Under the pieces are notes generated by a model that worked only from the letters and a program-made list of their open reading frames with translations, ran no database searches and was not told where the DNA came from. Below are positions 1-19,336 of a stretch of DNA of 45,901 bases, one piece after another. Origin of the DNA: an uncultured virus (IMG/VR IMGVR_UViG_3300033753_000202) (Duplodnaviria; Heunggongvirae; Uroviricota; Caudoviricetes); the IMG/VR virus record IMGVR_UViG_3300033753_000202; one strand, 5' to 3'. Made by a program: the position numbers and the translations under genes. Each line of letters begins with the position of its first letter. Position 1 is the first letter of the stretch.

Positions 1-1350
1 ATCGATGAAATCCTCAGCCAAATCGCCAAAGCCCAAATTCCGGGGGTATCGGACTACCGGGAGATCACGGACTTGCGTCGAGTTGGTATCGAGGTGGTTT
101 GTTCCAGCAAGAATGCGGTTTCCACAGTGCTTCCGCAACTTCTGAAGAACACCAACCTGCAAATGACCGTTCCGGCGAATATGATGGTCATTGTTCGCGA
201 CCGTCCGAAGTTGGTGGGTATCAAGGACTACATCCACGAGTGGTTGGAATTCCGCAAGGAAGTCGTGCGTCGGGAGCTTACGGCGGAACTTGAAGCGGTC
301 AATTTTGAGATCCCGCGCTACGAACTGTTGGTGGATTTGCTTGGTACCGATTATAAGCGTGAGCGTTTCATGGCGACGTTGTCCAAGCAGGGTACGAAGG
401 AAGCTCGCATGGTGCTTCGGGAGTTCTACCCGGACGCGGACAACGATATCTTCGACTGGATTCTCGGTATGCGGCTGTCCTCACTTGGTGGGGTAGGCAA
501 CAAGGGCGCTCGTCTGGAGCGACTGTATGCGGCGCGGAAGCAACTGGAATATGACCTTGAGCACATTCCGCAGTATATCGCTAAGCAACTGCGCGAGTAC
601 AATCAGAAATACAGCTTCCCACGCAAAACCACGGTTTCCGACGTCGACTACACCTTTGAACGTGAAGCTCCGGCGAAGGTTGAACTTCCGGCGATGCCTT
701 GTATTGTGCAACTGGATGGGAAGTTCTTCAAACGCTACAACGTAGACGTCATCACGAAGAACTACGAAGGTATCCGTTGCTCGTCGAAGGACGTTATCTC
801 GATGATCGACACGCACGGTCGACTCTTGCGTGTCAAGGTCGAAGACATCGAACCGGTCTCTGGAAATGGGCGTGGCGTTTATCTGCCGTCCTTCTTGGAG
901 ATTCCCGACGATTTTGAAATCGTTGCGTGCGATGTCATCTCGGACAAAAAAGTAGGTTATGTATACTCCGATGGTTTCGTGTCCGTCTTGGATCTGTCCG
1001 AGTGGGCGGATAGCAAGCGCACCACCCGGATGACGCAGAATGGGGTATCTCCTGAAGCCTATAAGATCATCGCTGAGTTCCCGATTCCGAGCGAGTACTT
1101 GTACGTTGTCACGTCGAAGGGACGTTTTGGTTTCTTCACTGCCAATGAGTTCAAGCACAAGCATCGCACGGCTCGAACCAAGCTGATCAATCTTAAGCCG
1201 GGAGAAGATCTCACTTATGCGTTGCCTGTTTCCGGCGTGGATCTGCTGAAGTTGGTCAGCAACGCGGCGCGTTATATCGACAAGCTCGGGGCACTGGCGG
1301 CGGACGACACCTTCAATACGGAGTATCTCAACACACTGAGCGGGGCTTAA
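1..1350 (+). CDS. gyrA: Type IIA topoisomerase subunit A (GyrA/ParC-like), C-terminal part; 5' end lies outside the window
   Basis: The frame is open from base 1 (IDEILSQIAKAQIPGVSDYREITDLRRVGIEV), resembling the GyrA 'gIsdlrDesdr.GmrivI' segment. It also has 'LLKNTNLQMT..NMMVI..RPKLVGIKDYIHEWLEFRKEVV', 'ILGMRLSSL', 'KYSFPRKT' and degenerate beta-pinwheel repeats. GyrA versus ParC cannot be resolved. Confidence 0.8.
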   Translation: MDEILSQIAKAQIPGVSDYREITDLRRVGIEVVCSSKNAVSTVLPQLLKNTNLQMTVPANMMVIVRDRPKLVGIKDYIHEWLEFRKEVVRRELTAELEAVNFEIPRYELLVDLLGTDYKRERFMATLSKQGTKEARMVLREFYPDADNDIFDWILGMRLSSLGGVGNKGARLERLYAARKQLEYDLEHIPQYIAKQLREYNQKYSFPRKTTVSDVDYTFEREAPAKVELPAMPCIVQLDGKFFKRYNVDVITKNYEGIRCSSKDVISMIDTHGRLLRVKVEDIEPVSGNGRGVYLPSFLEIPDDFEIVACDVISDKKVGYVYSDGFVSVLDLSEWADSKRTTRMTQNGVSPEAYKIIAEFPIPSEYLYVVTSKGRFGFFTANEFKHKHRTARTKLINLKPGEDLTYALPVSGVDLLKLVSNAARYIDKLGALAADDTFNTEYLNTLSGA

Positions 1351-1363
1351 TGCCCCGCTTTTT
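1339..1363 (+). terminator. Intrinsic terminator overlapping the gyrA-like stop
   Basis: AGCGGGGC-ttaat-GCCCCGCT followed by TTTT. Confidence 0.65.
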
Positions 1364-1376
1364 GGGAGGTTCCGGT

Positions 1377-2180
1377 ATGAAAATCAGTTTGAGGTATGGG
1401 ACACCGCCAAGGGATTTCGAGGCATCGGTCGACTCTATTGTACCCAAGCCGATTGAGTTGGCGGTGGAGAACGTTGGGGATTTTCCGTCGCAAGCTCGGT
1501 CGTTGCAGTTTTATGTCCAGTCCCTGAAGTACCTCTTTCAAGGGGTAACCAACATGGTGACAGGGAATTTGCTCCGTCTTTCGGTCGAGAAGAGTTGGTT
1601 CGGTAAGATCGAACGTGACGGCTTCTCAATCAAGTGGGAACCCCGGATCGACAAGTTTTTCGTGGTGGTTTATTCGCTTGGTGACGCTAAGTTGGATGAG
1701 GACATGTACGTTGCCGATGTGGTGTATTCCACGAAAAGTGGTCGTATTGATACACAACCTGTATGGCTCAACTCGCTCTTGAACCAGAAGAGCAAAGCCG
1801 CCGCGATGGAGAAGGAGCATCTGACGGGCGCTATCGCCGCTGTCACTAAGCACATTGGCTCTTGCTCTTTGGTGTACACGAACGACAAGTTGACGGTCAT
1901 TGACCGTCGTCGGAAGAAGCAGATTCAAGTGGAAGACATTCCTTCGGATGAAGTGTACGTCTTGGTGCGTCTTATCTATCGGATTTTGAGTAAAGGACTG
2001 CATCAGGGGGTCTTCTTTGTTAACGGTCGTTATTACTCTGACAACGTTATCAATGCCTTGGTGGACTTGTCGCGTTTTATCTACGGAGACTGCTTCATCT
2101 TCCTGTACAACTTGTCGGCGGACAGCCGTGTGGATCGTGCAAAATTCGTACTACCGAATCTGGAGTTGAGTTCCTCTTAA
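1377..2180 (+). CDS. Hypothetical protein (~267 aa)
   Basis: ORF 1350..2180; GGGAGG precedes the ATG at 1377 (MKISLRYG), which is the likelier start. No recognisable motif. Confidence 0.7.
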   Translation: MKISLRYGTPPRDFEASVDSIVPKPIELAVENVGDFPSQARSLQFYVQSLKYLFQGVTNMVTGNLLRLSVEKSWFGKIERDGFSIKWEPRIDKFFVVVYSLGDAKLDEDMYVADVVYSTKSGRIDTQPVWLNSLLNQKSKAAAMEKEHLTGAIAAVTKHIGSCSLVYTNDKLTVIDRRRKKQIQVEDIPSDEVYVLVRLIYRILSKGLHQGVFFVNGRYYSDNVINALVDLSRFIYGDCFIFLYNLSADSRVDRAKFVLPNLELSSS

Positions 2181-2206
2181 GCCCCGGAATCCTTCGGGGC
2201 TTTTTT
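2179..2206 (+). terminator. Intrinsic terminator
   Basis: AAGCCCCGGA-atcc-TTCGGGGCTT then a T-run. Confidence 0.75.
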
Positions 2207-2216
2207 CTTTCCTCTT

Positions 2217-2245: not shown

Positions 2246-2279
2246 GGTAGCTTTCACTTCTATTGTTGGGGGTAGCTGA

Positions 2280-4394
2280 ATGTCTGATCAAGCATCTTTC
2301 TTTATCGATGGTTCCTCTCACGGGATTCCTCATATGACACCTTCTTCATCGCAAGGTGTACCTAATCCACTTCAGCCCGCGCAAGGCGCTTCTCCGGTCG
2401 CTCCGGCTCCGGGAGTGGTTCAAGGCGATCCTGCGGTTTCTGCGCCCGTTCAGGCGGCGCAAATGCCCGGACAGCCCCTTCAGTCGGCTCCTTCCGGTTT
2501 CGCTCCGGCTCCGGGCGTTCCCGGCGCTCCTGCCGCGCCCGCTTCGGGAACGCCGTCTTTTGCGGCTTATTCGCTTACGGACAATCTGTCCAATGAGCAG
2601 ATCATTTTTGCTGGGGTTTACTGCGACGATCATGAACTGTTCCGTTCCCGTCGTGCTAAATTCAACACCATGTTTCCTAACACGCGGGATATGTTCACGA
2701 ACGAGTGGGCGGTTTTTGCGATTCTGCTGAAGGAGTATCCGAAAATCATTCCAACGGAGCGCTTTTTGGAGTTGTTCATGCGTACCAATCAAGCCAAACT
2801 TCGGAATCATAAGCAGATTGATTACTCTGCCTATCGAATGGGGGACAGTGATCCCTATGCGGAGTTTACGGCGGTCGTGATCAATACCCTTCGCGAGCTT
2901 AAAGGTCTTCGCATCTCCGAGTCGGACTTTGAAATGGCGCTCGAGATGTATAAAATGGAGTACCTCTCTCGCGAGAGTATTCAAGTCCTCGAAGAAGCCG
3001 TCACGATTATTTCTGAAGGGGTAAGTCGGGGACGCAGAGTTTCGGCGGGGTATGAAGACATGCGTCGTATGCTGAATCAGCGATTTTCGTATCTTGACAA
3101 TATCAATGCTAAGAGTACGCGTCGCGGTATCATTACTTACGGAGCTAATGATGAGAGTGAGGACAATTCCGGGAAAGTCAAGCTCGTCTCGACTTTTGGT
3201 ATCCAACTTCTCGATCAGTATGTTGGGGGTATTTACGAAGGCGATATGGTGTCGATTTTGGCTCCGGCGAAAGGATGTAAAACTCGTTTTGTTACGAGTA
3301 TCATTCATCACGCTATTGTTAATGGCGTTGACGTAGCCGTATGGCCAGTTGAAAACGGACCGAAAAACTTCGAAGCGTTACTTCGTGCAAGGCACTTCAA
3401 CTGGTTGTATAACCGAAACGTGGAAACTGCCCATAAGAAGATTTATCTCGACTCCGACATGATTCGTAAAGGTGATCTTTCTGGGGAGCTGGAGAAGAAG
3501 GAACTCGCTTCGTGGAACGATCTCAAAACTAATAAGAACTATGGTCGTTTCGTGGTCATTGATGAAAACTTCTTGTTGGAGAGTTTTCTCGACACTATTC
3601 AACTGGCGATTGAAACTGTCGGTGCAAAGCTCATCGCGGTGGACTATTTGCAGTTGATTCAGTCGTCCACCAACATTCAAAAGAATGAGCGCATCGCGGC
3701 GGCGTACATTCAAATGCTTCAGTTTTTGAAGCAAAAGAGTATCGCTGGTATTTTCCCCGGTCAGCTTAAGCAAACGGTGGTTTCAAACTTGGGCGGAAAA
3801 TCGGTGGATGAGTTGGCGGAAATGGAAATGCGTGACTCCGCTGGTGAGTCTTACGAGGTCATCAAAACGCCGGACGTTAACCTTGCTTTGTACGGTACGG
3901 TTTCCGATATTCGTCGGGGTAGTATGAAACTGCTCTCCATTCCTTCTCGGAACATCGCTCCGTTCCATCCGATTGACTTGCATGTCGAGGCGGGAACTTG
4001 CACGTTCCGTAGCATTCAGAAGGATGACGCTCTGCTTACGCTTGATGGGCTTCTGCCGAAGCAAGTGGAACCCGCCCAACCTGCGGCTCCTGCGGTAGTC
4101 AGTGCGGTTCCTGCTTCGCTTGGAGGTGTAGCACCTTCGGTAGCGGTCAATCCGCTTGCGTCGATCCCCGCAACGGCACCTGTTGGGGTAAATGCTCCGG
4201 GCGTTCCCGCCCCGGTAGCGGCACCAATCTCTCCGAATGATGGGGTACCTGTTTCTGAGTTGGGTGGGGAAGCGACTGAAAGTGATCTTGGCGGTGACTT
4301 CCCAGAGGACGATTACGATCCCGAAATGTATGGGGACGATGGGGAATACGAGGTTTTCGAAGACGGGGATGACAACTATGACGAAGACGAGTAA
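2280..4394 (+). CDS. dnaB: DnaB-like (SF4) replicative helicase with Pro/Ala-rich termini and an acidic tail
   Basis: 'LDQYVGGIYEGDMVSILAPAKGCKT' (Walker A region), 'IAVDYLQLI' (Walker B), 'PGQLKQ' and 'MRDSAGESYEVIKTPD' match SF4 helicase motifs H1-H4. Confidence 0.8.
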   Translation: MSDQASFFIDGSSHGIPHMTPSSSQGVPNPLQPAQGASPVAPAPGVVQGDPAVSAPVQAAQMPGQPLQSAPSGFAPAPGVPGAPAAPASGTPSFAAYSLTDNLSNEQIIFAGVYCDDHELFRSRRAKFNTMFPNTRDMFTNEWAVFAILLKEYPKIIPTERFLELFMRTNQAKLRNHKQIDYSAYRMGDSDPYAEFTAVVINTLRELKGLRISESDFEMALEMYKMEYLSRESIQVLEEAVTIISEGVSRGRRVSAGYEDMRRMLNQRFSYLDNINAKSTRRGIITYGANDESEDNSGKVKLVSTFGIQLLDQYVGGIYEGDMVSILAPAKGCKTRFVTSIIHHAIVNGVDVAVWPVENGPKNFEALLRARHFNWLYNRNVETAHKKIYLDSDMIRKGDLSGELEKKELASWNDLKTNKNYGRFVVIDENFLLESFLDTIQLAIETVGAKLIAVDYLQLIQSSTNIQKNERIAAAYIQMLQFLKQKSIAGIFPGQLKQTVVSNLGGKSVDELAEMEMRDSAGESYEVIKTPDVNLALYGTVSDIRRGSMKLLSIPSRNIAPFHPIDLHVEAGTCTFRSIQKDDALLTLDGLLPKQVEPAQPAAPAVVSAVPASLGGVAPSVAVNPLASIPATAPVGVNAPGVPAPVAAPISPNDGVPVSELGGEATESDLGGDFPEDDYDPEMYGDDGEYEVFEDGDDNYDEDE

Positions 4395-4423: not shown

Positions 4424-4453
4424 GGACAACTCATTTTTGAGTTGTCTTTTCTT
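4424..4453 (+). terminator. Intrinsic terminator
   Basis: GGACAACTCA-tttt-TGAGTTGTCT then a T-rich tract. Confidence 0.7.
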
Positions 4454-4566
4454 TGCGAAATCTGTCCGCTCTTGGTCAATTTAGGCGGGAAAATAGGATT
4501 ACTTTATGTCCTGTTCGGAGTGTGGAATACGTTGGTTCAGTTGATTTATTTTCGGAGGTGTTATAC

Positions 4567-5712
4567 TTGAAGTTCTCGTTAAAGGACAGTAGAATTCTCA
4601 TTTCACTAGGGGTACTCCTACTGATCTTGGTCTTTGTAGGAGTGTATATCTTGGTACCGGACTTTCGTTCTGGTATTTCGGCAACGATGTCTCAACTTTT
4701 CGGGAATACGTCATCTGCCGTTTCGGATATCGCTACGAAGCCGAGTCAGTCTAATTTTGATCCTTCGACTGGGCAGTATCAGTCAATTATCACGGAGGAA
4801 GGTGACTTGGACTTCTTTAATAATCCTGAGCAACAGCCCGTTGAAGAGGAGCATGACCCTTATGCCGATTATCCGGTGACAGCTAGAATCATTTCGCTTA
4901 ATACGGAAGGTGCGTCTTACCTGATTCAAGACGGAATTTATTGGGTGTTGGTTGACACCTCCACAGGTCGGGATACGGACAAAATTCTCTCGGTGTTGAA
5001 AGAGAATCAGGTCAAATCACTTCGTTACCTCATCATTACTAATTACAATACGTTTGCTCTTGGTGGGGCGGAAAAGATTCTGGATAGTATCCCTGTAGAT
5101 TTTATTGTGGTGGCGGAAAGTGTGGTCACCGAAGAGGAAGGTAAGCCGCTCTTACGGTACTTTGACCAGAAGCGACTGTTGTATACGGTCGGCTCCAAGC
5201 ATGGGCGCTACCCCTTGGATCAGGGGGTACTCGAAGTCCATCAAACACATGAGAAAGGATCGCTCATGTTGACGTATTATCATGGTGCGTCTAAAATTGT
5301 CTTCACGGGCGATCTTATGAGGATCGATGAGGATCGACTTGATCTTCTGCCGACTTACATCGATGCTTTGTATCTCAGCTATCGTCGTCCTGAGTACGAA
5401 ATTCCTTCTGGGTTGATCGATCACACCAAGCCGAAAGCACTTTACGCTACAGGTACGGGAAGTCTTACTGCAACGAAGAAGTTGCTCAGCACTTTGACCA
5501 CGGCGGAGTATGCAAACCATTTCTACAATCTTGATAGTACGTTGGAATTTGTACTTAACGGCTACACGATTAAGGCTCCTAAGCCCAATGTGGTAGTTCC
5601 TCAAGAAACGCCTTCCACAGAAGAAGGTCAATCCTCGAACGCGGACGCAGGGGTAAATTCGGATGCTGAGTCTGATTCCGTGTCCAGTGACAATAGCGAC
5701 TCACAGGGGTAA
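4567..5712 (+). CDS. Membrane-anchored ComEC/Rec2-type metallo-beta-lactamase-fold protein with degenerate metal sites
   Basis: GGAGGTG RBS before the TTG at 4567 and an N-terminal TM helix. 'VLVDTSTG', 'LIITNYNTFALGG', 'SLMLTYYHGASKIVFTGDL' and 'IDALYLSYRR' align in order with the ComEC MBL motifs. Confidence 0.65.
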   Translation: MKFSLKDSRILISLGVLLLILVFVGVYILVPDFRSGISATMSQLFGNTSSAVSDIATKPSQSNFDPSTGQYQSIITEEGDLDFFNNPEQQPVEEEHDPYADYPVTARIISLNTEGASYLIQDGIYWVLVDTSTGRDTDKILSVLKENQVKSLRYLIITNYNTFALGGAEKILDSIPVDFIVVAESVVTEEEGKPLLRYFDQKRLLYTVGSKHGRYPLDQGVLEVHQTHEKGSLMLTYYHGASKIVFTGDLMRIDEDRLDLLPTYIDALYLSYRRPEYEIPSGLIDHTKPKALYATGTGSLTATKKLLSTLTTAEYANHFYNLDSTLEFVLNGYTIKAPKPNVVVPQETPSTEEGQSSNADAGVNSDAESDSVSSDNSDSQG

Positions 5713-5799
5713 TTTTTCCTTTTGTAATATCAATGTCACGCTTCTTTCTGAGGAGTGGCATTTATATTAAGCAAATCCAATCAGGAGAGGTGCAGTACA

Positions 5800-6525
5800 A
5801 TGTCCAAGGATAAAGAACGCGAGCAACGCGAAATGCGGGAAAAGCAACTTGAGAGAATCGTTTCCAGTCGGGAAGACAAGCTGTCGGAAGGTGCGAAGTT
5901 GGCGATCATGCTCTGTTCGTCAGCGTTCCATTATGGCGGCGCATGGGGGTTCCTTCGTAGCACGAAGGAGAATTTCCGCGAGTGCATTGAGGAGTTTCGC
6001 AAGGAGCATCAAAACGTTCGGTTGTTCAAGGTGTCGAATGGCGCTTTGATTCACGCCAACGAGAACTTCCTCGCCAACGCGGTCAATGCGCTTCTTCCGG
6101 GAGCCATTACGCAGGATTTCGCTCAAAAGGCGATCAAGCGTCGTCAGGCGGAAACGGAGCGCTTCATCAAGTTCATTCAAAACGTGCTGGACGGCAAGGA
6201 GCAAGTGACCAAGAAGAACGGCATATACGAACTTCAGCTTGGGGTATACTCGATCAACGAGACCAACTCCATCCGTCTCAATGGGGTAGAGTATCCGGCT
6301 TACAAGTTGACGTTGTTTGAAGCTCTCGACATCATCGATAAGCTCAGTAAGCAACAAAACCTTGTTTCCGAGGTTTATGCCGTCACGGAAGACAATCAGC
6401 GTGTTTTCGCTCCGGTTTTTGCCGCTATGACCAATAGCAAAGGTGTGCAAGCGGTCTATCGCGGGCTTTCGATTTCGGAGACGGACACCGGGGTATTCGT
6501 CACGGTGCATCTGCGTCGTAAGTAA
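5800..6525 (+). CDS. Hypothetical protein (~241 aa)
   Basis: ORF 5755..6525; RBS GGAGAGGTG before the ATG at 5800. Confidence 0.75.
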   Translation: MSKDKEREQREMREKQLERIVSSREDKLSEGAKLAIMLCSSAFHYGGAWGFLRSTKENFRECIEEFRKEHQNVRLFKVSNGALIHANENFLANAVNALLPGAITQDFAQKAIKRRQAETERFIKFIQNVLDGKEQVTKKNGIYELQLGVYSINETNSIRLNGVEYPAYKLTLFEALDIIDKLSKQQNLVSEVYAVTEDNQRVFAPVFAAMTNSKGVQAVYRGLSISETDTGVFVTVHLRRK

Positions 6526-7497: not shown

Positions 7498-8352
7498 ATG
7501 ACTATCAAAATTGGGTTGGACGTTGGGCGTAGTAATGTCAAGGTTTTTGATGGTCGCAAGTATTTGACTTTTCCTTCTATCGTCGGAGAGGCTCGGGAAC
7601 TGAAGCTGGATTATCATCAGGACGACCAAGGTTTTCGAGTGACTTTTCATGATCATGCTGAACCGGAGCATTGTTTCATCGGCACTTTGGCTCGGGATGA
7701 AAGTGAGTTTGCCCGCCAAATGCTCTTGCGGGAAAAAGCTACCCCGGATACGTATCGCTTGGCGATGACTGCACTTTCGCAGTACATCCCGGAGGAACAG
7801 ACGGAGGGGTATTTCGATGTCATCACGGGAGTTCCGGTGCGGGATCATGATCCAGTCACGAAACAGCGGCTGATTGATCTGCTTCAGCGGTCTTGTACAC
7901 TCACGGTTGACGGGGTACTTAAGCGAGTGCATGTTACTCGCGTTCGGGTTACGGTCGAGGGTGGTGGCGCATTTTGGGTATCCCCTAAAGACGGAACCTA
8001 TCGCCTTATCGATGCGGGCAGTCGTACCATCAACTACATCACCATGCGGGATCGCCGTTATGTTGATAAGGAATCGGGCACGCTCGACTTTGGTTTCGAC
8101 ACCAATAAATCGACGAATTTGCGTGAGTTGACGGCGGCGATTGTGGGTGAGGTCGGTAAGCGTTGGTACTCCCACGATCAAATAGGGGTGCTTGGGGGTA
8201 ATGCTGTCGCTCTTACGGCGGAGTTGAAAAGGTATTTCCCGAATGCTCACCTGTTTGATGCAGGAAAACGTGTTTCGACTACTGGTCAAATCATCGATCC
8301 TAACCTCTTTGCCAATGCGATTGGGTACTATACGATGGGAAGGAGCGTGTAG
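7498..8352 (+). CDS. parM: Actin-like plasmid segregation ATPase, ParM/StbA family
   Basis: Phosphate-1 'IGLDVGRSNVK', 'VITGVP', connect 'EGGGA', phosphate-2 'LIDAGSRTIN' and adenosine 'VLGGNA'. Confidence 0.9.
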   Translation: MTIKIGLDVGRSNVKVFDGRKYLTFPSIVGEARELKLDYHQDDQGFRVTFHDHAEPEHCFIGTLARDESEFARQMLLREKATPDTYRLAMTALSQYIPEEQTEGYFDVITGVPVRDHDPVTKQRLIDLLQRSCTLTVDGVLKRVHVTRVRVTVEGGGAFWVSPKDGTYRLIDAGSRTINYITMRDRRYVDKESGTLDFGFDTNKSTNLRELTAAIVGEVGKRWYSHDQIGVLGGNAVALTAELKRYFPNAHLFDAGKRVSTTGQIIDPNLFANAIGYYTMGRSV

Positions 8353-8354
8353 CG

Positions 8355-8669
8355 GTGGGTGAAAGTCAGTATAAAAGGTGCGGTGTGGTCTTCAACATGA
8401 AGAATCCCGCGCATGCGGAGTTGTATCATTGGTGCTGTTCGCAGACGTCAAACTTTAGCGATTTTGCTCGTTCGATTCTGTTTCATTATATGCGGCATGG
8501 CGCGTCATCCATCGCGGCAGTTGGGTCGTCTGCGTTTGTATCACGGTCGGAGGGCGGTTCGATGAACCTCCCCTTCGAATCCGCCACTCCGGTAGTGGAA
8601 GAGGTGGAATCCGATAGCACCCCGCATCGGGGGTATTCTGATGCTGAATCAATGGCGAGTATGTTTTAG
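8355..8669 (+). CDS. ParR-like ribbon-helix-helix adaptor
   Basis: Small gene directly after parM. N-terminal beta-helix-helix pattern (KRCGVVFNMKNPAHAELYHWC..NFSDFARSILFHYM) and a disordered acidic tail. Confidence 0.6.
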   Translation: MGESQYKRCGVVFNMKNPAHAELYHWCCSQTSNFSDFARSILFHYMRHGASSIAAVGSSAFVSRSEGGSMNLPFESATPVVEEVESDSTPHRGYSDAESMASMF

Positions 8670-8823
8670 CTTCGGAATGTTATATTTATCCTAGCACTTG
8701 GTTCATACAGTATCCGATAATACCGCCTATAACCATCCAGATAAAATTCATGTGGGATCACCCCTTTCTCTTTGTAGGATGTCCGAAAGCCTATTTAATA
8801 ATCAGCAAGGGAGTTGAGAAATT

Positions 8824-9705: not shown

Positions 9706-9730
9706 TACGATTTTGTGGGGAGGTTTTGCG

Positions 9731-14069: not shown

Positions 14070-14084
14070 TGTTGGAGGTTGCTT

Positions 14085-14876
14085 ATGGAGCATATTTCAC
14101 TTCATCAGGACTTGGACTTGTTGTCCAGAATAAAGCAGGGTTTGGATAGGAACGAATTTTTCAATTTGTACCAACCCATTTATAACAATGACTCAACCCT
14201 TTCTTTAGCCGGGGTGGAGTGTTTGACACGTTGGAACTCTAAGGACTCGCTTCTTTCTGCGGCTGATTATATCCCGGTTATTGAGAACTCCATTCTTAAT
14301 TCTTACTTTTTCTTCTATACGCTGAATTTGGCGTTGAGTCAGTTGAAGGAGTATCTTTCTCCCTCTTTTAAGTTGTCGGTGAATGTTCCTTTCAGTTTGG
14401 TCTTTTTGCCGGAGTTTAGTTATAAGGTATTACATACGCTTCAGACGCAGGGAGTAGATCCTTGCTTCTTGATGTTGGAGGTTACGGAGACGCACATCCT
14501 CCCGAGGGGGTACATTCATCAACATCCTGAGATTTTGGTAGTTGCTGAAGGAGTAACGCTTATTATTGATGATTTTGGTTCAGGTTCGACCTCCCTCATG
14601 TATTTACACGATAGTAACTTTTCAGAGTTAAAGTTGGATCAAGCTTTCTTAAGCCCGTTTTATTTTGGTTCAACGCGCAACTTTGCTATTCTTCATAGTA
14701 TTGTGAAGCTTTGTAAGAAGTTGAATATTCTTACTACCCTTGAGGGTGTGGAGTCTGCGGAGCATCTCGAATTGGCACGGCGACTTGGGGTAGATAAACT
14801 GCAGGGGTACTATTTGTCGAAGCCTTTAACTTTAGATAATTTGACTGCTTTATTGATTAAGGAGGGTTCGAAGTGA
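14085..14876 (+). CDS. Stand-alone EAL-domain c-di-GMP phosphodiesterase
   Basis: YQPI, 'GVECLTRW' (ExL), 'LSVNVP', 'LEVTET', 'IDDFGSGSTSL', 'LKLDQAF', 'EGVE' and 'QGYYLSKP'. Confidence 0.9.
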   Translation: MEHISLHQDLDLLSRIKQGLDRNEFFNLYQPIYNNDSTLSLAGVECLTRWNSKDSLLSAADYIPVIENSILNSYFFFYTLNLALSQLKEYLSPSFKLSVNVPFSLVFLPEFSYKVLHTLQTQGVDPCFLMLEVTETHILPRGYIHQHPEILVVAEGVTLIIDDFGSGSTSLMYLHDSNFSELKLDQAFLSPFYFGSTRNFAILHSIVKLCKKLNILTTLEGVESAEHLELARRLGVDKLQGYYLSKPLTLDNLTALLIKEGSK

Positions 14877-15280
14877 GTAATCAAAGTGTGAAAAAGAACG
14901 CGAAAACTCATGCTCCCAGGGTGAATATTCGTGGTAAGTCCACCACGGACTCGTCGAGTTACTACATCCTTAGTCGGAATGTGAAAATTGATCAGACGAA
15001 TGGTCTGCTCATGGTAACCAAAGTTTTTGCGGAACGGCATCTTTCTCCTTCAGCGCGTAAATATGCTTGCAAGGTAGATGACGATTTTTACTACTGGAAC
15101 TGGGGTAGGGAGTCCTCGGTTGTAGTTTTTGAGGTTCCGCGCATTTTCAATCTGCAGTTCACGGAACTTATGCGATACCTCTACACCTACTGCATCGATT
15201 ATTTGAAGGAAAATGATCTTCGCGAATCGGTGTTGTACTATCGTTATATGGATAACTTTAATAAAGATTTGAGGTTGTGA
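14873..15280 (+). CDS. Hypothetical protein
   Basis: AAGGAGGG RBS; the GTG start overlaps the EAL gene end. Confidence 0.65.
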   Translation: MSNQSVKKNAKTHAPRVNIRGKSTTDSSSYYILSRNVKIDQTNGLLMVTKVFAERHLSPSARKYACKVDDDFYYWNWGRESSVVVFEVPRIFNLQFTELMRYLYTYCIDYLKENDLRESVLYYRYMDNFNKDLRL

Positions 15281-15284: not shown

Positions 15285-15869
15285 ATGCCGCCTATTAAAC
15301 GCAAACGTTCGGTCAATGAACTTCGGGTTCTCAAGGGCGTTGATCGCGTCCGCTATTATAACGAACAAATTGTGCCGCTGGCTCCGCTTGCCAAGCGGCA
15401 GTTTCAACCTATGTCACCTTCTCGCAACTCAGGGCTTTGTCCATTCCATCATGACACCGACCCTTCTTTCCGTAACTGGGAAGAGGGCGGTGTTTTCCAC
15501 TGTTTCGGTTGCGGGTATTCTGGGGATGTCATTAGGACGCATCAAATGATCCTTCAGCAGTATCATGGTATTAAGAAAACTGTGAAGGAAGTTGTGCATA
15601 TCCTTGCTCAGCTTTATAACATTCAGCTTGATGAGGAATCTGGGGACGACACGGACTCTCCTTTCCAGCGGGCACGGGGTATTCTTTTGGATAAGGACGC
15701 ACTCTCCCTTCCGAAGACTCAACCTTCTTTGTTGGATTTCACCAAAAGTAATGACCGGATTATTAAATCCAATCTTTCGCTGGAGGATAGAATCAGCAAC
15801 TTCGCCAACTTGGATTTGGTCATTTCGGCGTATTTGAGTGAATCTCGTCCGTCTGACGGAATGTTATAA
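15285..15869 (+). CDS. Stand-alone CHC2 zinc-finger protein (DnaG primase zinc-binding domain)
   Basis: 'GLCPFHHDTDPSF...FHCFGCGYSGDVI'; no Toprim domain follows. Confidence 0.85.
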   Translation: MPPIKRKRSVNELRVLKGVDRVRYYNEQIVPLAPLAKRQFQPMSPSRNSGLCPFHHDTDPSFRNWEEGGVFHCFGCGYSGDVIRTHQMILQQYHGIKKTVKEVVHILAQLYNIQLDEESGDDTDSPFQRARGILLDKDALSLPKTQPSLLDFTKSNDRIIKSNLSLEDRISNFANLDLVISAYLSESRPSDGML

Positions 15870-15886
15870 GGAAAGGAGGGGTATAT

Positions 15887-16936
15887 GTGTCAATACCACG
15901 GGCGCGATTTTTCAAACCTGTTGTTTCAACAGATATTTCCCATCTCTTACAGATCCCGGATCTTGGTGGCGCGAAAGCAGACACACCAACAGATTTCCTT
16001 CTTTCTATTCGTGCGGTAACGTTTAAGGACGTAATCGCTCATTTGGGAGATTTCCTTAGCCTTGACATTTCTGTTAACAGCACGGGCTGGGTGCGTTATG
16101 TCCAAGGTGAGCTTGCTTTTGGAACACGTAAACTTGAAGCCTTGGACGACTTGGGACGTCGACAGGAATTTCGTGAGTTTTTGAAAGAGATCACGCGGGG
16201 GTATTCCTTCGATCATGTGCTGGTGGAGGATGTAATTGGAGGGGTAAACTTCCGTACCAATAAAATCCTCTATCAACTCAATGTTATTCCTGACGATCTT
16301 ATCGCGGACGGGGTAATTCAGGCAAAAGCCCTTCTTCGGGAGGGCAACTCTGAATGGAAATCCGGACTTAAGAAAGTCTCCGGGTATTCTCCTTCGGTTA
16401 AAGGTTCGAGAGACGATAAAAAAGACACGATTGAAGCGTTACGCTTAATCGGGTTCAGCGACACGGAACCTAAGCCGCGTGAGGACGTGTGTGATGCGAT
16501 GGGGTTGGCGGTTGGAACGGCGTTTAACCGCTTCATTAAACCGAAGCCTAAGAAGAACACCAAGCTCCGCACGGATATTACCAAGGTCTATCGAATTGAG
16601 CAGTTCTTCAATGAGACGGACGCCGCCCTTCGCGCTCATGATCTTGGGGGTTATGTGCATACTTTGGATTTCACGGATCGACCTCGGGATTTGAAGTACA
16701 ATTTCCGTAAGTATATCGAAGAGCAGGAAGATGACTCCGGTATTTATCACATCATTGTTCCCACTACGCGAATCGGCTCCGTCGCCCTGCAACGGGGTTT
16801 TGACTTGTCGGATGAAATTACGCACCTTGTGGTGTATTTACCACGCAGTGTGAAGAAAAGCGTAAGGAGGGGTAGTCATGCAGGGGTTTCCGAATCAACC
16901 ACCGCATCCGGGTGTTCCACCGATGGAATCTCCTAA
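15887..16936 (+). CDS. ruvC: RuvC-like (RNase H fold) Holliday junction resolvase with extensions
   Basis: Catalytic pattern 'LSLDISVNSTGW', 'VLVED', 'SEWK' and 'EDVCDAMGLA'. Confidence 0.7.
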   Translation: MSIPRARFFKPVVSTDISHLLQIPDLGGAKADTPTDFLLSIRAVTFKDVIAHLGDFLSLDISVNSTGWVRYVQGELAFGTRKLEALDDLGRRQEFREFLKEITRGYSFDHVLVEDVIGGVNFRTNKILYQLNVIPDDLIADGVIQAKALLREGNSEWKSGLKKVSGYSPSVKGSRDDKKDTIEALRLIGFSDTEPKPREDVCDAMGLAVGTAFNRFIKPKPKKNTKLRTDITKVYRIEQFFNETDAALRAHDLGGYVHTLDFTDRPRDLKYNFRKYIEEQEDDSGIYHIIVPTTRIGSVALQRGFDLSDEITHLVVYLPRSVKKSVRRGSHAGVSESTTASGCSTDGIS

Positions 16937-17174: not shown

Positions 17175-17250
17175 GGGGCTTTCTTTTTGCCAACTTACAA
17201 GTTACAATTTTTATAAAAGTCAAATCCTTTTGCGGTAAGGAGGTTTTTCA

Positions 17251-18510
17251 GTGTCCTCTTTGAATGATAGGTTGCAGTGGATATTCACGCGCTTCAACTT
17301 TATTGAGGCGCAGGAGCAACGAGCGGAGCTTATCGACCGTTTGGAATCTGCGATCCTCGAATTGAATGAAGCCGCGCAACGTGGTGAAGAACTGGTGTCT
17401 GATGGGGTATATGACACGTTGAAGGATTATCTTCAGCAACTTCACCCGGACTCCCCGGTTCTCAAGACCGTTTGGTCGGCTGACGACCCGCAGGGGGTAT
17501 TCGATGCCGACCTTGATCGTTTCCTGAAGGTTTATCCGATGCTGTCCATCCAGACGGTCAAGTCTCTTTCGGACAAATGTGTGCAAACGTTCAAGGATGC
17601 ACTCCCGCCCGGTTTGCATACGTTTCATTTTGGCATTAAGCTCAACGGTCACGGCATCCGTGTCGTTTGGAAGGACGGGCATCTTGTTAAGGCAACTTCT
17701 CGCGGTCGTTCGACGGTCGGGAAAGATCTCACGCCGCAAATGCGGCTCATTTTGGGCGAGTACCATCCGACCTTAGCCCCTTACGGGTTGGTGGAAGCCC
17801 GCGCTGAGGCGGTTCTGCCGTTCTCCAATTTGGCGAAGGCGCGTTCGTTTAACCCGCAAATCAAGTCGGCATTTACGGCGGTCGCGTCCATGATTCGGGC
17901 TTCGGCTACGCCGGAGGAGACGCGTCTGTTGGACGTGGTGTTCTATGATATTCTTGCGGACGGGTTGCGCTTCGCCACGCTCACGGAGAAGTTCAATTTT
18001 CTCGCGTCTTTGGGGTTCAAGACCCCTTACTTCTTCACCATGCAGTCCTCGGTGCGTGATCTGGACATGACCATCAACACCGCTCTCCAGAAAGCGGCGC
18101 AAGAGACGCAAGGTTATCCCTATTACACTGACGGTTTGGTTCTTACGGTCGACGACCTTTCTGTCTTTGCCGCGATGGGGCAGGAGGAATCGTTCCGTTA
18201 CGGAAACCTTGCCTTGAAGCTCGGGAAGTGGAAGCAGGAAAATTACAGCGGTACCATCTCCCGTATTAAGTGGGAGAAAGGTAAGTCCAAACTCACTCCG
18301 GTCGCTGTTCTTGAAGGTGATGGGGTACTCACCGCTACGGGCAACAAAGTGGTGAACGTACCGCTCTATGCTCCGGTTTATATTCTGCTTTTGGAGGCGT
18401 ATCCGGGCAACACGATTCATTTCAAGTACGGTGGAGAGGCAGGGGTAATCCCTCTCACCCCGGAAGGACATCTCGTCACCGAGTTGGAGCTTGCCGACAC
18501 GTATCTTTGA
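17251..18510 (+). CDS. ligA: NAD-dependent DNA ligase-like protein (Ia, adenylation and OB domains only)
   Basis: 'VSDGVYDTL', 'YPMLSI', motif I 'IKLNG', 'ATSRGRSTVGKDLT', 'EARAEAV', motif IV 'TDGLVL', 'LALK' and 'LTPVAVL'. No Zn-finger, HhH or BRCT domains. Confidence 0.8.
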   Translation: MSSLNDRLQWIFTRFNFIEAQEQRAELIDRLESAILELNEAAQRGEELVSDGVYDTLKDYLQQLHPDSPVLKTVWSADDPQGVFDADLDRFLKVYPMLSIQTVKSLSDKCVQTFKDALPPGLHTFHFGIKLNGHGIRVVWKDGHLVKATSRGRSTVGKDLTPQMRLILGEYHPTLAPYGLVEARAEAVLPFSNLAKARSFNPQIKSAFTAVASMIRASATPEETRLLDVVFYDILADGLRFATLTEKFNFLASLGFKTPYFFTMQSSVRDLDMTINTALQKAAQETQGYPYYTDGLVLTVDDLSVFAAMGQEESFRYGNLALKLGKWKQENYSGTISRIKWEKGKSKLTPVAVLEGDGVLTATGNKVVNVPLYAPVYILLLEAYPGNTIHFKYGGEAGVIPLTPEGHLVTELELADTYL

Positions 18511-18541
18511 TATCTGTATCGCTGAAAGGAGGGTGTAACCG

Positions 18542-19336
18542 ATGGCGAATTTCTCCACTCTGCTTGATGCGGAAGGGCATTTTGCCGATCTCTCGGTCTA
18601 CACCCTCCGCGAGCAAATCAACTTCCTTCGGGACTTTCGAGGTACCAGCGATCATACTTTAACTGCCTACCGTTCATTGGATGAGGTTCCTTTTGGTACG
18701 GTTCCGGTCGGTTCCATTGACTTTGTGGAGGCGGTTCTGAAGCGTGACCACGGCATTGAGCGAGTTCCTCCGCTTCAACTTCCGTACCCGTTAACAGTAC
18801 CGAAAATGGCGATTCGCCGGGTGTTCACAATCACGGGGGTATCGGAAATCCCTAAAGGGGATTGGTTCGTGAAGCCGCTTGAGCGATATAAAGGCAACCC
18901 ACCTTTCCGTTCTAAGGGGGAAATTACCCTTTCGGGGAAATATTTCATCTCTGAGTACGTGGACTTTGAAGCGGAGTGGCGAGTTTTCGTTTTTCGCGAT
19001 GAAATCCTTGGGGTACGTCAATATTTGGGGGACTACGACAGGCACTTCAATTCAGATCGCTTGAAAACCTTTGTTCGTGTTCTCGAAGAGTACCGTCGTG
19101 CTTCTTACGCCGCTGTTCGCATCCCGATAGCTTACACGCTCGACATTGGTTTGATGCGGTATAAAGGTCGAACATTCACCGTTCCGGTGGAGATGCATCA
19201 CTTTTATAGTTGCGGTTTGTATGGTTTTGGGCATACCTCGCTCCCGTCGATGTATTCGGCTACCTATTATGAGTTGGTTCGTACTTTTTCAACCAGCGAT
19301 AAATCGCGGGATTTCCTTTCCCGGACAATCGTCTAA
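18542..19336 (+). CDS. ATP-grasp domain protein (DUF4343/R2K-like)
   Basis: 'PVGSIDFV', 'WFVKP', 'ISEYVDFEAEWRVFV', 'AYTLDIG' and 'VEMHHFYSCGLYG'. Confidence 0.8.
   Translation: MANFSTLLDAEGHFADLSVYTLREQINFLRDFRGTSDHTLTAYRSLDEVPFGTVPVGSIDFVEAVLKRDHGIERVPPLQLPYPLTVPKMAIRRVFTITGVSEIPKGDWFVKPLERYKGNPPFRSKGEITLSGKYFISEYVDFEAEWRVFVFRDEILGVRQYLGDYDRHFNSDRLKTFVRVLEEYRRASYAAVRIPIAYTLDIGLMRYKGRTFTVPVEMHHFYSCGLYGFGHTSLPSMYSATYYELVRTFSTSDKSRDFLSRTIV

Follow-up and report, generated by a model that had tools for sequence, protein, structure and literature searches.

A compost metagenome segment probably derived from a pXO16-type giant plasmid-like element

The stretch of DNA analysed here (45,901 nucleotides, referred to as the window) is probably, at a probability that we put at roughly 70%, part of a giant extrachromosomal element, plasmid-like and of the pXO16 type, likely carried by a Bacillota host in a compost-type habitat. 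pXO16 is a 350-kb conjugative plasmid of Bacillus thuringiensis serovar israelensis; to our knowledge it is the sole studied member of its lineage, and we know of no account that has so far given it relatives beyond its host group. The window's backbone of replication and repair genes is collinear with that of a pXO16 copy and of a 158-kb relative, with terminase and capsid undetected in both, which upholds the giant extrachromosomal element proposed in a preliminary description of this DNA; that description made no link between the backbone and a known type of plasmid.

Window and parent contig

A locus on a 228,941-bp metagenome contig (L002) is 100% identical to the first 14,391 bases of the window, and a twin locus on a 273,468-bp contig shows 99.1% identity (the contigs concerned being Ga0310827_100034 and Ga0207866_1000014). 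The parent contig is thus at least 229 kb long and has a near-identical 273-kb counterpart, in keeping with the large size suggested earlier. The contig sequence covered by our analysis amounts to 53.6 kb, comprising the window and 7.7 kb upstream, and the upstream DNA adds a SNF2 helicase gene and a GyrB-like gene to the content of the window. Mechanical ORF picking in the window returned 40 ORFs on the + strand and 7 on the - strand, the latter short or overlapping + ORFs, and GC skew is positive and gene orientation single throughout. The genes named in the preliminary description (GyrA/ParC-like, DnaB-like, CHC2, RuvC-like, LigA-like and ParM) are all present and all on the + strand. Its observation that capsid, terminase, integrase and ribosomal genes are missing from the window also held: Pfam searches of 42 + ORFs and a 297-aa - ORF (itself with no Pfam match) detected no capsid, terminase, portal, integrase or ribosomal family, and a PHROGs scan of the + ORFs detected no capsid, terminase, portal or integrase. 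In a compost DNA run, positions 1-20000 of the window were covered in 30 of 30 bins at 95-100% identity.

Replication and repair backbone

The backbone genes in the window, together with neighbouring genes, are as follows.

1..1350, +, ParC/GyrA-like type IIA topoisomerase A subunit, C-terminal 449 of 719 aa (PF00521)
1350..2180, +, conserved 276-aa protein, no assigned function (homologues at the same position)
2280..4394, +, DnaB_C/KaiC-like (RecA-fold) helicase, 704 aa, with N- and C-terminal extensions (PF03796, E 1.3e-7)
4453..5712, +, metallo-beta-lactamase-fold protein, 419 aa (PF00753, E 1.5e-9)
5755..6525, +, conserved backbone protein W5755, 256 aa, no assigned function (homologues in relatives)
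14873..15280, +, conserved 135-aa protein upstream of the CHC2 gene (homologues in L005, L007, L013 and L016)
15285..15869, +, CHC2 zinc-ribbon protein, 194 aa (PF01807, E 1.3e-13)
15887..16936, +, RuvC-fold nuclease (fold at residues about 45-217), followed by an additional alpha/beta domain at the C-terminus (AF2 model, Foldseek)
17251..18510, +, truncated NAD-ligase-like protein, 419 aa (PF01653 adenylation domain, E 1.3e-14)
18542..19336, +, R2K-clade ATP-grasp protein (PF18299, E 3.5e-15)

The start of the GyrA-like gene lies 810 bases ahead of the window (L002 6912-9071), and the SNF2 helicase and GyrB-like genes precede it; a GyrB was among the genes that the preliminary description proposed to look for. 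Its product retains the catalytic motif HMRYTQ (RY), shares 30% identity with the GyrA of the pXO16 copy, and scores 315.7 bits against NCBIfam PRK05561, where the cut-off is 654. In a GyrA tree of 12 rows, a check that had likewise been proposed, nine element-borne proteins separated from one phage GyrA, one cellular GyrA and one ParC with split support of 100/100. Divergence from housekeeping versions, as claimed earlier, extends across the set, with NCBIfam scores far under the curated cut-offs for gyrA (253 vs 877), gyrB (366 vs 882), DnaB (20 vs 385), LigA (TIGR00575, 91 vs 444), dnaG (54 vs 284) and ParM (21 vs 417).

The DnaB-like helicase is the hallmark gene of the element family. It carries a variant Walker A motif (APAKGCKT), is 31% identical to the helicase of the pXO16 copy, and has 46 metagenome relatives and 121 cluster representatives at E<=1e-30. 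Between it and the GyrA-like gene there is invariably the gene of the 276-aa protein, with same-position homologues in eight metagenome loci (25-36% identity) and no lead in Pfam, NCBIfam or Atlas. The metallo-beta-lactamase-fold protein recurs in L004, L005, L006 and L008, and W5755 has homologues in 11 of the 13 loci searched and, at 26% identity, in the pXO16 copy; its AF2 model, although confident (pLDDT 88.9), matched no solved fold (Foldseek best E 0.027, VIA best Z 4.6).

The 135-aa protein matched no Pfam or NCBIfam family. The CHC2 protein (C-x2-H...C-x2-C at residue 52) is a primase zinc-binding domain without a Toprim domain; its gene occupies the identical position in the pXO16 copy, the 158-kb relative (G001) and other relatives, and Toprim is a separate protein in the first two. 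By sequence alone the RuvC-like protein matched only phrog_159 (E 8e-4), and its AlphaFold model (pLDDT 75.6) matched solved RuvC structures 6lw3 (E 3e-8) and 1hjr and the phage structure 4ktw, with target TM of 0.69-0.74. Residues D60, E114, D115, D200 and D203 are invariant in six sequences, and collinear homologues occur in the pXO16 copy and G001. The NAD-ligase-like protein is without the zinc-finger, HhH and BRCT region, has K-L-N-G as motif I in place of the canonical KxDG (alignment), and is 37% identical to its counterpart in the pXO16 copy and 38% to that in G001.

Kinship with pXO16 and metagenome relatives

As the pXO16 copy we used the ~349-kb plasmid p2 of B. thuringiensis JW-1, equated with pXO16 by hit statistics alone, because these are identical to those of NC_018516. 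When 47 proteins, 40 of them encoded in the window and the other 7 in the upstream DNA, were searched against it by tblastn at E<=1e-3, eight were matched at 24-43% identity, all in the same order: SNF2, GyrB, GyrA, helicase, W5755, CHC2, RuvC-like and ligase. The other 39 of the 47 had no match, so the kinship is one of the backbone alone. Eight of the 47 proteins were also matched, collinearly, in G001, a 158,408-bp IMG/VR record that carries a terminal direct repeat of 55 bp and has 147 of its 151 ORFs on one strand; the pXO16 copy shares 33 of those 151 ORFs, for the most part in matching order around the plasmid. The SNF2-to-ligase order is kept in nine informative metagenome loci (L004-L010, L014 and L015), whose contigs reach 410 kb. 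In relatives a DNA polymerase of family A was seen, and the window is without one.

ParM-ATPase cassette and EAL protein

7498..8352, +, ParM/Alp-like actin-type segregation ATPase, 284 aa (PF17989 ALP_N, E 1.9e-21)
8355..10169, +, three small ORFs (104, 293 and 155 aa) of the ParM-ATPase cassette (between the ParM and ATPase genes)
10363..13320, +, SPP1 gene-32-family ATPase, 985 aa as listed (phrog_5156, E 1.7e-137)
14079..14876, +, stand-alone EAL-domain protein, predicted c-di-GMP phosphodiesterase (PF00563, E 2.3e-43)

The ParM-to-ATPase cassette is collinear with that of Alicyclobacillus phage MMB025, a 105-kb myophage with integrase and partition genes. The ParM-like protein matches the partition protein phrog_691 (E 1.6e-30) and is 31-33% identical to the split partition gene of MMB025; small ORFs 8355-8669 and 8824-9705 have conserved counterparts in both L005 and L006, and the C-terminus of the latter ORF matches MMB025 and phrog_5422. 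The ATPase, whose true start may lie later than listed, has a deviant P-loop (GSPRMGKD) and is 36% identical to its MMB025 counterpart and about 27% to those of Bacillus phages and plasmids. It is possibly related to type IV coupling proteins: an ESM Atlas feature score of 0.98 with TrwB_AAD_bind/DUF87 clusters is a lead only, and hhalign against one plasmid coupling protein was not significant. EAL genes are also present in relatives L005, L006 and L015.

Predicted surface protein, Tad-like operon and accessory genes

20300..28891, +, giant predicted surface protein, 2863 aa (PF12810, E 3.4e-58)
29004..30389, +, M23 peptidoglycan endopeptidase, 461 aa (PF01551, E 3.6e-32)
30373..33308, +, upstream half of a Tad-like operon (SAF PF08666, E 1.9e-5; layout)
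33312..35474, +, TadA/CpaF/VirB11-family secretion ATPase, 720 aa, with an N-terminal TM segment (PF00437, 27.9 bits, cut-off 24.9)
35474..37435, +, polytopic membrane protein, 653 aa, about 7 predicted TM segments (hydropathy scan)
37814..42088, +, seven proteins of 225, 179, 143, 161, 145, 149 and 337 aa (N-termini, TM scan)
43066..44330, +, membrane-anchored thioredoxin and DsbD-type transmembrane protein (PF00085, E 1.5e-16; PF02683, E 1.8e-21)

A surface appendage encoded by the element itself had been suggested, and the window does carry a Tad-like pilus operon, which is in synteny with operons of large Bacillota plasmids and shares its layout with those of pTHECO01 and pBsph. The upstream half holds a 197-aa membrane protein followed by a SAF/CpaB-like protein (30990-31907; TIGR03177 CpaB E 3.8e-5, under the cut-off; 28% identity to the pTHECO01 SAF protein), and its 194-aa and 264-aa proteins stand where pTHECO01 has a hypothetical and a ParA-annotated protein. 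The TadA-like ATPase (TIGR03819 E 1.1e-11; Walker A GRQGSGKT) is 33-40% identical to ATPases of 100-543-kb Bacillota plasmids. The 653-aa membrane protein, without a T2SSF match in Pfam, is a candidate pilus platform protein and is 22% identical over 646 aa to a 690-aa protein downstream of TadA in pTHECO01. Each of the seven proteins that follow has one N-terminal hydrophobic helix and none has a Pfam match; in three of them a short charged leader ends in G, making these three pilin or pseudopilin candidates, and the product of 40610-41059 is 36% identical to a small pTHECO01 protein.

The 2863-aa protein contains two glycine-rich ALK_LTK_GRD domains, and a TM and composition scan indicated a hydrophobic signal or anchor at its N-terminus and a hydrophobic segment at its C-terminus; the LPXTG motif is absent, and in its C-terminal part the protein shares 23% identity with the giant DUF5704 protein of pTHECO01. 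The thioredoxin and DsbD-type pair probably acts as an accessory disulfide-reductant relay. pXO16, in contrast, is without the ParM and SPP1-gp32 ATPase cassette, the 2863-residue surface protein and the Tad-like operon, and its annotated surface and transfer genes differ from the surface block of the window.

Discussion

Several modules of the window have their best relatives in phages. The window could be the replication and early region of a jumbo tailed phage of a Bacillota host, with tail-fibre-like and lysis-like genes and a virion module elsewhere on the contig. Consistent with such a phage are PHROG matches to topoisomerase II, DnaB-like helicase, primase, NAD ligase and partition protein, the collinear MMB025 cassette, the frequency of the 985-aa ATPase family in Bacillus phages (matches in 104 phage records; typical of SPP1-like phages), the matches of the glycine-rich domain to PHROGs and of the M23 protein to endolysin and tape-measure PHROGs, the one-strand gene orientation, contigs of 229-436 kb, and the classing of G001 as viral by IMG/VR (CheckV completeness 79%). 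We nevertheless consider it unlikely. Virion and integration genes were undetected in the 53.6 kb (Pfam, with PHROGs for window + ORFs), and virion genes were undetected within +/-10 kb of the helicase in five loci scanned. G001, a record with a terminal repeat, yielded no capsid, portal or terminase family (122 ORFs by PHROGs at E<=1e-5 and 122 by Pfam at E<=1e-4), its sole tail-labelled match being a lysozyme-type domain, and PF03354 and PF05065 are absent from both G001 and the pXO16 copy. Furthermore, the helicase had no match in 50,697 phage records and no relative in IMG/VR, the Tad-like operon is common to bacterial plasmids, no tRNA was found in the window, and two reviews describe pXO16 as a plasmid, conjugative by experiment, with every CDS in one orientation and without plaques (PMC9673590, PMC6199540).

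Less probable still is a phage-plasmid, that is, a pXO16-type replicon with a functional or integrated prophage as in some Hodor megaplasmids. Of the 38 curated Bacillota megaplasmids in the Hodor preprint, 6 are reported to carry intact prophages (PMC12934698), one review discusses a suspected phage-like nature of pXO16 (PMC6199540), and the window shares modules with MMB025, which combines integrase and partition genes; the same absence of virion and integration genes from the 53.6 kb, and of terminase and capsid from G001 and the pXO16 copy, leads us to favour a megaplasmid. Least probable is a location in the chromosome of an unknown bacterium, as an ordinary region, an island or a large integrated element, for although the 229-273-kb contigs, whose ends lie outside the covered sequence, could be chromosome fragments and the thioredoxin, DsbD and CAP genes near the window end look cellular, no housekeeping genes, tRNAs or Rfam families were found in the 45.9-kb window, the topoisomerase subunits score less than half of orthologue cut-offs, skew and gene orientation are uniform, a free plasmid and a 158-kb record bearing a terminal repeat show the same backbone gene order, and a pattern scan of 185,579 GTDB species genomes returned no relative of the helicase.

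For the favoured plasmid-like element, functions can be suggested from gene content, on the basis of homology, gene order and folds. The one-direction backbone would supply a DnaB-like helicase, a ligase-like enzyme and a SNF2 helicase for replication and repair, with a split primase whose CHC2 zinc ribbon is in the window and whose Toprim part is expected elsewhere. The ParC/GyrA-like and GyrB-like topoisomerase may unlink and relax a very large replicon, the RuvC-fold nuclease, judged from its model, may resolve recombination or replication intermediates, and the ParM-like actin would partition a low-copy element. The 2863-residue surface protein, the M23 wall hydrolase and the Tad-like type IV filament machine would form a surface block that, with the SPP1-gp32-family ATPase, probably serves cell contact and possibly DNA transfer, and the EAL phosphodiesterase may reduce host c-di-GMP. 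Indirect signs, namely best matches, the SLH and sortase genes of relatives and a single MAG contig assigned to a bin, suggest that an uncultivated bacterium of the Bacillota from compost-type habitats is probably the host. Taken together, these results suggest that the compost element is distant kin of pXO16, a plasmid previously held to be without relatives beyond its host group.

Location and gene content

A search with the window helicase recovered 46 relatives, all of them metagenomic and on contigs of up to 436 kb, and a metagenome scan with an alignment of these relatives yielded 18 loci. Window positions 1-14391 were 100% identical to one of them (L002, on the 228,941-bp contig Ga0310827_100034), and a second (L003, on the 273,468-bp contig Ga0207866_1000014) was 99.1% identical to the window. 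L002 extends 7.7 kb further upstream. In that DNA lie the genes for an SNF2 helicase and for a GyrB-like protein of 700 aa, two small ORFs and the beginning of the GyrA-like gene (719 aa); GyrB was among the genes that the preliminary description had proposed to look for.

The window comprises 45,901 bases and has a GC content of 47.8%, with positive GC skew in all 2-kb bins and no tandem repeats. A mechanical ORF pick placed 40 ORFs on the + strand, covering 89.5% of the window, and seven on the - strand that are short or overlap + ORFs, which bears out the earlier statement that the genes lie on one strand. The genes named in that description were recovered with Pfam, PHROGs and NCBIfam as follows:

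1-1350, + strand, ParC/GyrA-like protein, C-terminal part
2280-4394, + strand, DnaB_C-type helicase
7498-8352, + strand, ALP_N/ParM-like protein
15285-15869, + strand, CHC2 zinc-ribbon protein
15887-16936, + strand, RuvC-like protein (weak by sequence, see below)
17251-18510, + strand, NAD-ligase adenylation-domain protein

The GyrA-, DnaB-, ParM-, CHC2-, RuvC- and ligase-like proteins all score far under the NCBIfam orthologue cut-offs, in agreement with the proposed divergence from housekeeping versions. The reported lack of capsid, terminase, integrase and ribosomal genes in the window was confirmed with Pfam and PHROGs, and portal, tRNA and Rfam matches were absent from the window as well.

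Two further regions were noted. The largest gap of the window, 760 bases at 13320-14079 between an ATPase gene and an EAL gene (longest ORF 77 aa), might accommodate a promoter or cis site, or encode a small membrane peptide (71-aa ORF, 13645-13860). The window end (43066-45899) encodes a thioredoxin anchored in the membrane, a membrane protein of the DsbD type, a 3-TM protein whose C-terminus matches the PHROG 'outer membrane protein', and a secreted CAP-domain protein, together a probable extracytoplasmic redox and secretion accessory set.

A collinear backbone shared with pXO16

Among 72,556 plasmids, the helicase matched only 12 Bacillus records, ten of which are B. thuringiensis plasmids of ~349.6 kb (30.8% identity, E 6e-55); there was no match among 50,697 phage records. 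One of the ten, NC_018516, is pXO16 according to the available sections of PMC6199540. Plasmid p2 of B. thuringiensis JW-1 (~349 kb), whose hit statistics are identical to those of NC_018516, was taken as pXO16 (346,330 of 349,211 bases used) and is referred to as the pXO16 copy. In tblastn at E<=1e-3, 8 of 47 query proteins (7 upstream and 40 from the window) matched this copy, all in the same order, and 39 had no match. The eight comprise the following backbone, in which W5755 is a 256-aa window protein.

Identity of backbone proteins to the pXO16 copy
SNF2 helicase: 33%
GyrB-like protein: 36%
GyrA-like protein: 30%
Helicase: 31%
W5755: 26%
CHC2 protein: 43% over 46 aa
RuvC-like protein: 24%
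Ligase-like protein: 37%

The backbone order is also found in nine metagenome loci (L004-L010, L014 and L015) on contigs of up to 410 kb. A GyrA tree, which had been suggested in the preliminary description, was built from 12 rows with three outgroups only (a Bacillus phage GyrA, a Lachnospiraceae GyrA and Salmonella ParC); it set the nine element-borne GyrA sequences apart from the outgroups with support of 100/100 and grouped the window in a seven-sequence metagenome clade (98/98), whose sister is the pXO16 copy together with G001, a 158,408-bp IMG/VR record (90/88). Cluster representatives matched by the helicase profile number 653 at E<=1e-3, 217 at E<=1e-10 and 121 at E<=1e-30. Searches of IMG/VR with the helicase, as a single sequence or as an alignment, returned no relatives, as did those with an exact 42-mer and with the 985-aa ATPase of the window, and the helicase alignment found no relatives among GTDB species genomes. 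Two ~215-kb plasmids of Bacillus velezensis and B. amyloliquefaciens (H86 and H87) encode helicases 22% identical to that of the window (E 5e-5 and 1e-4), and on this similarity both possibly belong, at a greater distance, to the plasmid type of pXO16.

In the sections of PMC9673590 and PMC6199540 available to us, pXO16 is described as a conjugative plasmid that aids its own transfer through aggregation by surface proteins, with all CDS in one orientation, few CDS with database homologues, relaxase and oriT unidentified, and no plaques obtained. The same sections call it a "unique" conjugative system with a natural range apparently confined to one serovar. The element resembles pXO16 in its collinear backbone (24-43% identity), in genes on one strand (the pXO16 copy tables only + genes), in very large size with mostly orphan genes, in the unusual K-x-N-G motif I of the ligase, and in giant surface proteins and cell-wall hydrolase genes. 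The two differ in that pXO16 lacks a T2SSE-family ATPase, and hence a Tad-like operon, and in that the ParM, SPP1-gp32-family ATPase and EAL protein of the element have no tblastn match in pXO16, which has a ParM/StbA gene of its own. Conversely, pXO16 has FtsK/SpoIIIE and AAA ATPases, a family A polymerase, a set of kinases and phosphatases, and adhesins anchored by sortase, none of which was seen in the window or the 7.7 kb upstream, and tblastn likewise found no match to pXO16-type transfer genes in this DNA. In the pXO16 copy and G001 the genes for FtsK/SpoIIIE, the AAA ATPase and a TipB-type hydrolase lie just upstream of SNF2, a position beyond the edge of L002. Host and habitat also differ from those of pXO16, the element being known from metagenomes alone. 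As judged from sequence, the closest known relative of the element is pXO16; the kinship is distant, and the surface and transfer block of the window is of another kind. Within the published literature covered, which stops short of subscription journals, we found no link between pXO16 and metagenomic relatives.

Properties of the backbone proteins

The helicase contains the C-terminal RecA-like ATPase domain (PF03796, 31.7 bits against a cut-off of 27) with a variant Walker A, APAKGCKT, where the family consensus is APAKGGKS. Pfam found no DnaB N-terminal domain in it, and its score against TIGR00665 (19.8 bits, cut-off 385) is below DnaB orthologue level. Within the helicase gene, one contig of compost run X7 skips 340 bases (3406-3747, with loose ends at 3372 and 3779), which suggests that this segment has diverged or been replaced in the population sampled, or else that the contig was misassembled.

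The topoisomerase subunits score under every equivalog cut-off (253 vs 877, 241 vs 629 and 366 vs 882). The GyrA-like protein has the catalytic Tyr motif HMRYTQ at residue 135, and the GyrB-like protein has the Toprim acidic motifs EGNSA, PLRGK and DADIDG; all are intact. The ligase-like protein (419 aa) has the PF01653 adenylation domain with K-L-N-G, not KxDG, at motif I, and its model match ends at ~372 of 652, so that it is without Zn-finger, HhH and BRCT modules. Motif I reads KLNG in G001 (L035 16175-17578) and KENG in the pXO16 copy (L022 5163-6635), and the more distant ligase-like proteins of L010 and L007 are without lysine at this alignment column.

By sequence, the RuvC-like protein was recognized weakly (phrog_159, E 8e-4), and a PDB sequence search returned nothing significant. 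Its AlphaFold model (pLDDT 75.6) has the RuvC fold, matching solved RuvC structures in Foldseek (6lw3, 1hjr and 4ktw; E 3e-8 to 4e-7, target TM ~0.7). Residues D60, E114, D115, D200 and D203 are invariant in an alignment of six sequences and would be catalytic. W5755 (5755-6525) has homologues in the pXO16 copy and at 11 of the 13 loci examined. AlphaFold models the protein with confidence (pLDDT 88.9), and the model had no match among solved structures (best Foldseek E 0.027, best VIA-align Z 4.6), a result that does not imply a new fold. The 276-aa window protein starting at 1350 gave no lead in the ESM Atlas.

A probably circular relative filed as a virus

The family A polymerase, which was not found in the window or the 7.7 kb upstream, is present in the pXO16 copy, in G001 and in a contig of a Lachnospiraceae MAG. 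A search with the pXO16 polymerase found 668 relatives at E<=1e-10, many of which lie on 200-390-kb contigs. The closer ones (71-98% identity) carry the labels Bacillus toyonensis and B. cereus, and many others share ~40% identity with the query, on 200-389-kb contigs. A scan of IMG/VR with an alignment of the polymerase relatives returned one record, G001 (IMGVR_UViG_3300045988_184221).

G001 has a GC content of 46%, 147 of its 151 ORFs on one strand, and a 55-bp terminal direct repeat that would represent the overlap of a circular assembly. The same collinear backbone is present, with 8 of the 47 proteins matching, and 33 of the 151 ORFs have counterparts in the pXO16 copy that for the most part follow one another in the same order; the shared set includes FtsK-like, clamp-loader-like, PolA and UvrD proteins and the kinase/phosphatase set. 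Among the genes of G001 are those for a clamp loader, UvrD, an FtsK/SpoIIIE protein and an FHA/PP2C/kinase set, for a Toprim primase, a RecJ-like protein and a ParM-like actin, and for an SLH protein and a sortase with an antigen I/II adhesin. It differs from the window in grouping with the pXO16 copy in the GyrA tree, and neither G001 nor pXO16 has a T2SSE ATPase over the cut-off.

The 128 ORFs of G001 of at least 110 aa were searched for virion genes, 122 with PHROGs (E<=1e-5) and 122 with Pfam (E<=1e-4), together 127; the GyrB-like gene (the 128th) and 23 shorter ORFs lay outside the scan. No capsid, portal or terminase family was found among the 127 ORFs, the sole tail-labelled match being a lysozyme-type domain. 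Whole-record searches, to which control genomes responded, found neither TerL_ATPase nor an HK97-type capsid in G001 or the pXO16 copy. G001 is entered in IMG/VR as viral, with 79% completeness and direct terminal repeats. We read the record as what looks like a circular plasmid of pXO16 type placed among the viruses.

The pXO16-like polymerase of the Lachnospiraceae MAG lies on a 95-kb binned contig (L046, CANQFR010000001.1, labelled uncultured Lachnospiraceae; match span 4.4 kb), where five genes are collinear with the polymerase neighbourhood of G001. The helicase had no match in this incomplete MAG.

The ParM-ATPase cassette

Window positions 7498-13320 hold a cassette of the ParM-like gene, three small ORFs and a gene for a 985-aa ATPase of phrog_5156, a family that includes SPP1 gene 32. 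The cassette also occurs in the closer relatives L005 and L006. Features of the ATPase in the ESM Atlas point to TrwB/TraD-type coupling proteins (score 0.98), and we treat a relation to coupling proteins (T4CP) as a lead only. In hhalign, the comparison with the T4CP of plasmid pTHECO01 gave E 0.058 and a probability of 0.9, and that with the pXO16 FtsK-like protein gave nothing; sequence and profile searches of the PDB with the ATPase returned nothing significant. A stand-alone EAL protein is encoded next to the cassette (14079-14876) and recurs in three relatives.

A collinear arrangement of ParM-like gene, small ORF, (M23-type peptidase) and 800-985-aa phrog_5156 ATPase is found in MMB025, a 105-kb Alicyclobacillus phage with annotated tail sheath and baseplate, at 36% identity to the window for the ATPase and 31-33% for ParM. 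MMB025 differs from the element in having a full virion module and an integrase and, in the 50 kb examined, in being without the backbone of topoisomerase, helicase, CHC2, RuvC and ligase. In its cassette (L001 7970-13597) the ParM-like gene is annotated as two 'partition protein' pieces, beside a metallopeptidase and an 812-aa ATPase; the label of the latter, 'VFDB virulence factor protein', looks uninformative.

Neither terminase nor portal nor major capsid was found in the window, the upstream DNA, G001 or the pXO16 copy, and we regard it as unlikely that the element is a jumbo phage. That it is a phage-plasmid we consider less likely again.

The surface block and Tad-like operon

A surface and pilus block starts at ~20.3 kb. 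It includes genes for a glycine-rich surface protein of 2863 aa and for an M23 peptidase, and a predicted Tad-like operon at 30373-42088, in line with the surface appendage anticipated in the preliminary description. The operon combines genes for a SAF/CpaB-like protein and a TadA-family ATPase with those for a 7-TM protein and for seven small proteins that each have an N-terminal helix. The ATPase has a Walker A motif and scores 27.9 bits against PF00437 (cut-off 24.9) and 44.5 bits against TIGR03819, under its cut-off of 373; the SAF protein scores 25.5 bits against PF08666 (cut-off 21) and only 23 against the CpaB model TIGR03177 (cut-off 71). The adjoining 653-aa protein, with ~7 TM segments, is a platform candidate, and had no T2SSF match in Pfam at E<=5. 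By eye, three of the seven small proteins have a leader ending in G before the helix; they have no Glu at +5 and no Pfam pilin match. No prepilin peptidase (A24) was found among the window's 42 ORFs, and one could be encoded elsewhere on the contig or in the host. Rescanning the Tad-operon proteins and pieces of the giant protein against Pfam at a relaxed E<=5 added nothing.

The TadA-family ATPase is 33-40% identical to ATPases of 100-543-kb plasmids of Paenibacillaceae, Bacillaceae and Clostridia. Operons laid out as in the window are present in pTHECO01 (Thermobacillus composti) and pBsph (Lysinibacillus sphaericus), the latter described as conjugative in the available part of PMC13239906, and similar ones occur in Paenibacillus, Cohnella and Clostridium plasmids. 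The shared order is a membrane protein, SAF, two small cytoplasmic proteins, a 610-720-aa TadA-family ATPase, a ~650-690-aa polytopic protein, small proteins with N-terminal helices and a ~330-aa protein, with identities of 39% for the ATPase, 28% for the SAF protein and 22% for the platform candidate. Giant surface proteins are encoded near the operon in those plasmids too, and in pTHECO01 T4CP and relaxase-like genes lie beside it. These large Bacillota plasmids differ from the element in having ordinary plasmid replicons and, in the parts examined, in being without a pXO16-type backbone.

At L009 (11467-18489; RCUS01000002.1, 388 kb), a prepilin peptidase gene (A24, PF01478) directly follows the helicase gene, and a different T2SSE ATPase, a T2SSF-like protein and a DUF4320 protein are encoded after the CHC2 and RuvC-like genes, indicating that type IV filament genes recur in this branch in more than one form.

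Habitat and host

Words from window positions 2280-12000 were found in 20 run rows from 17 studies, of phyllosphere (5, possibly the source of the window), mixed culture, compost and bioreactor material. One compost DNA run covers 30 of 30 bins of window 1-20000 at 95-100% identity. Two bioreactor RNA libraries (X19 and X20) gave contigs over 25 and 14 of 30 bins; these libraries may include DNA, and empty bins are no sign of silence. A bioreactor DNA run (X8) contained 0.75 of the sampled words but gave one partial piece only, and was not counted.

The best matches of the Tad ATPase (Thermobacillus composti and Cohnella) and of the cassette (Alicyclobacillus phage), together with SLH and sortase genes in relatives, suggest that the host belongs to the Bacillota. 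A diderm host, considered from the PHROG 'outer membrane protein' match at 44491-45273, was rejected given the absence of a Pfam OmpA domain and the SLH and sortase genes of relatives.

Comparison with Hodors and Inocles

Two other groups are, like this element, giant extrachromosomal elements of Bacillota found through metagenomics. In the available sections of PMC12934698 (bioRxiv 2026), Hodor megaplasmids are described as human gut elements of 211-389 kb, the size range of many of the contigs with pXO16-like polymerases, that came to light within a collection of huge phages and encode ParM as well as secreted surface proteins of giant size. The same sections define them by Rep_3, ParA/ParB, VirB4/VirD4/VirB6, several sortases and a SecYEG cluster, make no mention of pXO16 or gyrase, and refer to DNA polymerase only for a prophage. 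None of these defining genes was found in the window ORFs. Inocles, as presented in the portion of PMC12340149 (Nat Commun 2025) consulted, are elements of oral Streptococcus of up to 395 kb with gyrase and other DNA-repair genes and with DNA polymerase III, not a family A polymerase; pXO16 goes unmentioned in that portion. On these partial descriptions, Hodors and Inocles are set apart as analogous elements defined by other genes.

Interpretation and significance

The data establish gene order and homology, the RuvC fold, membrane topology and, for the topoisomerase, catalytic motifs that are intact. As to how the element most likely works, the backbone would replicate, unlink and repair a very large low-copy replicon and ParM would segregate it, while the surface block would contact other cells and may take part in transfer, and the EAL protein would modulate host c-di-GMP. 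For this mechanism pXO16 provides the functional precedent.

A further, tentative reading has in our estimate a probability of roughly one in five. It holds that pXO16 is not an orphan but the sole cultivated member of a broad, undescribed Bacillota lineage of giant (~160 to >400 kb) single-orientation plasmids with a phage-like replisome of their own, made up of a family A polymerase, DnaB-like helicase, type IIA topoisomerase, K-x-N-G ligase and RuvC-like nuclease. In the compost branch represented by the window, the pXO16-type transfer genes would be joined or succeeded by a Tad-like type IV filament machine and by an ATPase of the SPP1-gp32 family, maybe related to coupling proteins. This would constitute a pilus-based route of DNA transfer new for single-membrane bacteria.

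The replication backbone of pXO16 is common to diverse very large elements in compost, bioreactor and other metagenomes, at least one of which (G001) is filed as a virus in IMG/VR. This carries the warning that plasmids sit in huge-phage catalogues, a point that the Hodor preprint, in its available text, also argues (PMC12934698). The relatives provide comparative material for tracking down the origin, relaxase and transfer machinery of pXO16. Finally, the window yields a candidate, open to testing, for a Tad-like pilus that helps giant plasmids to spread.
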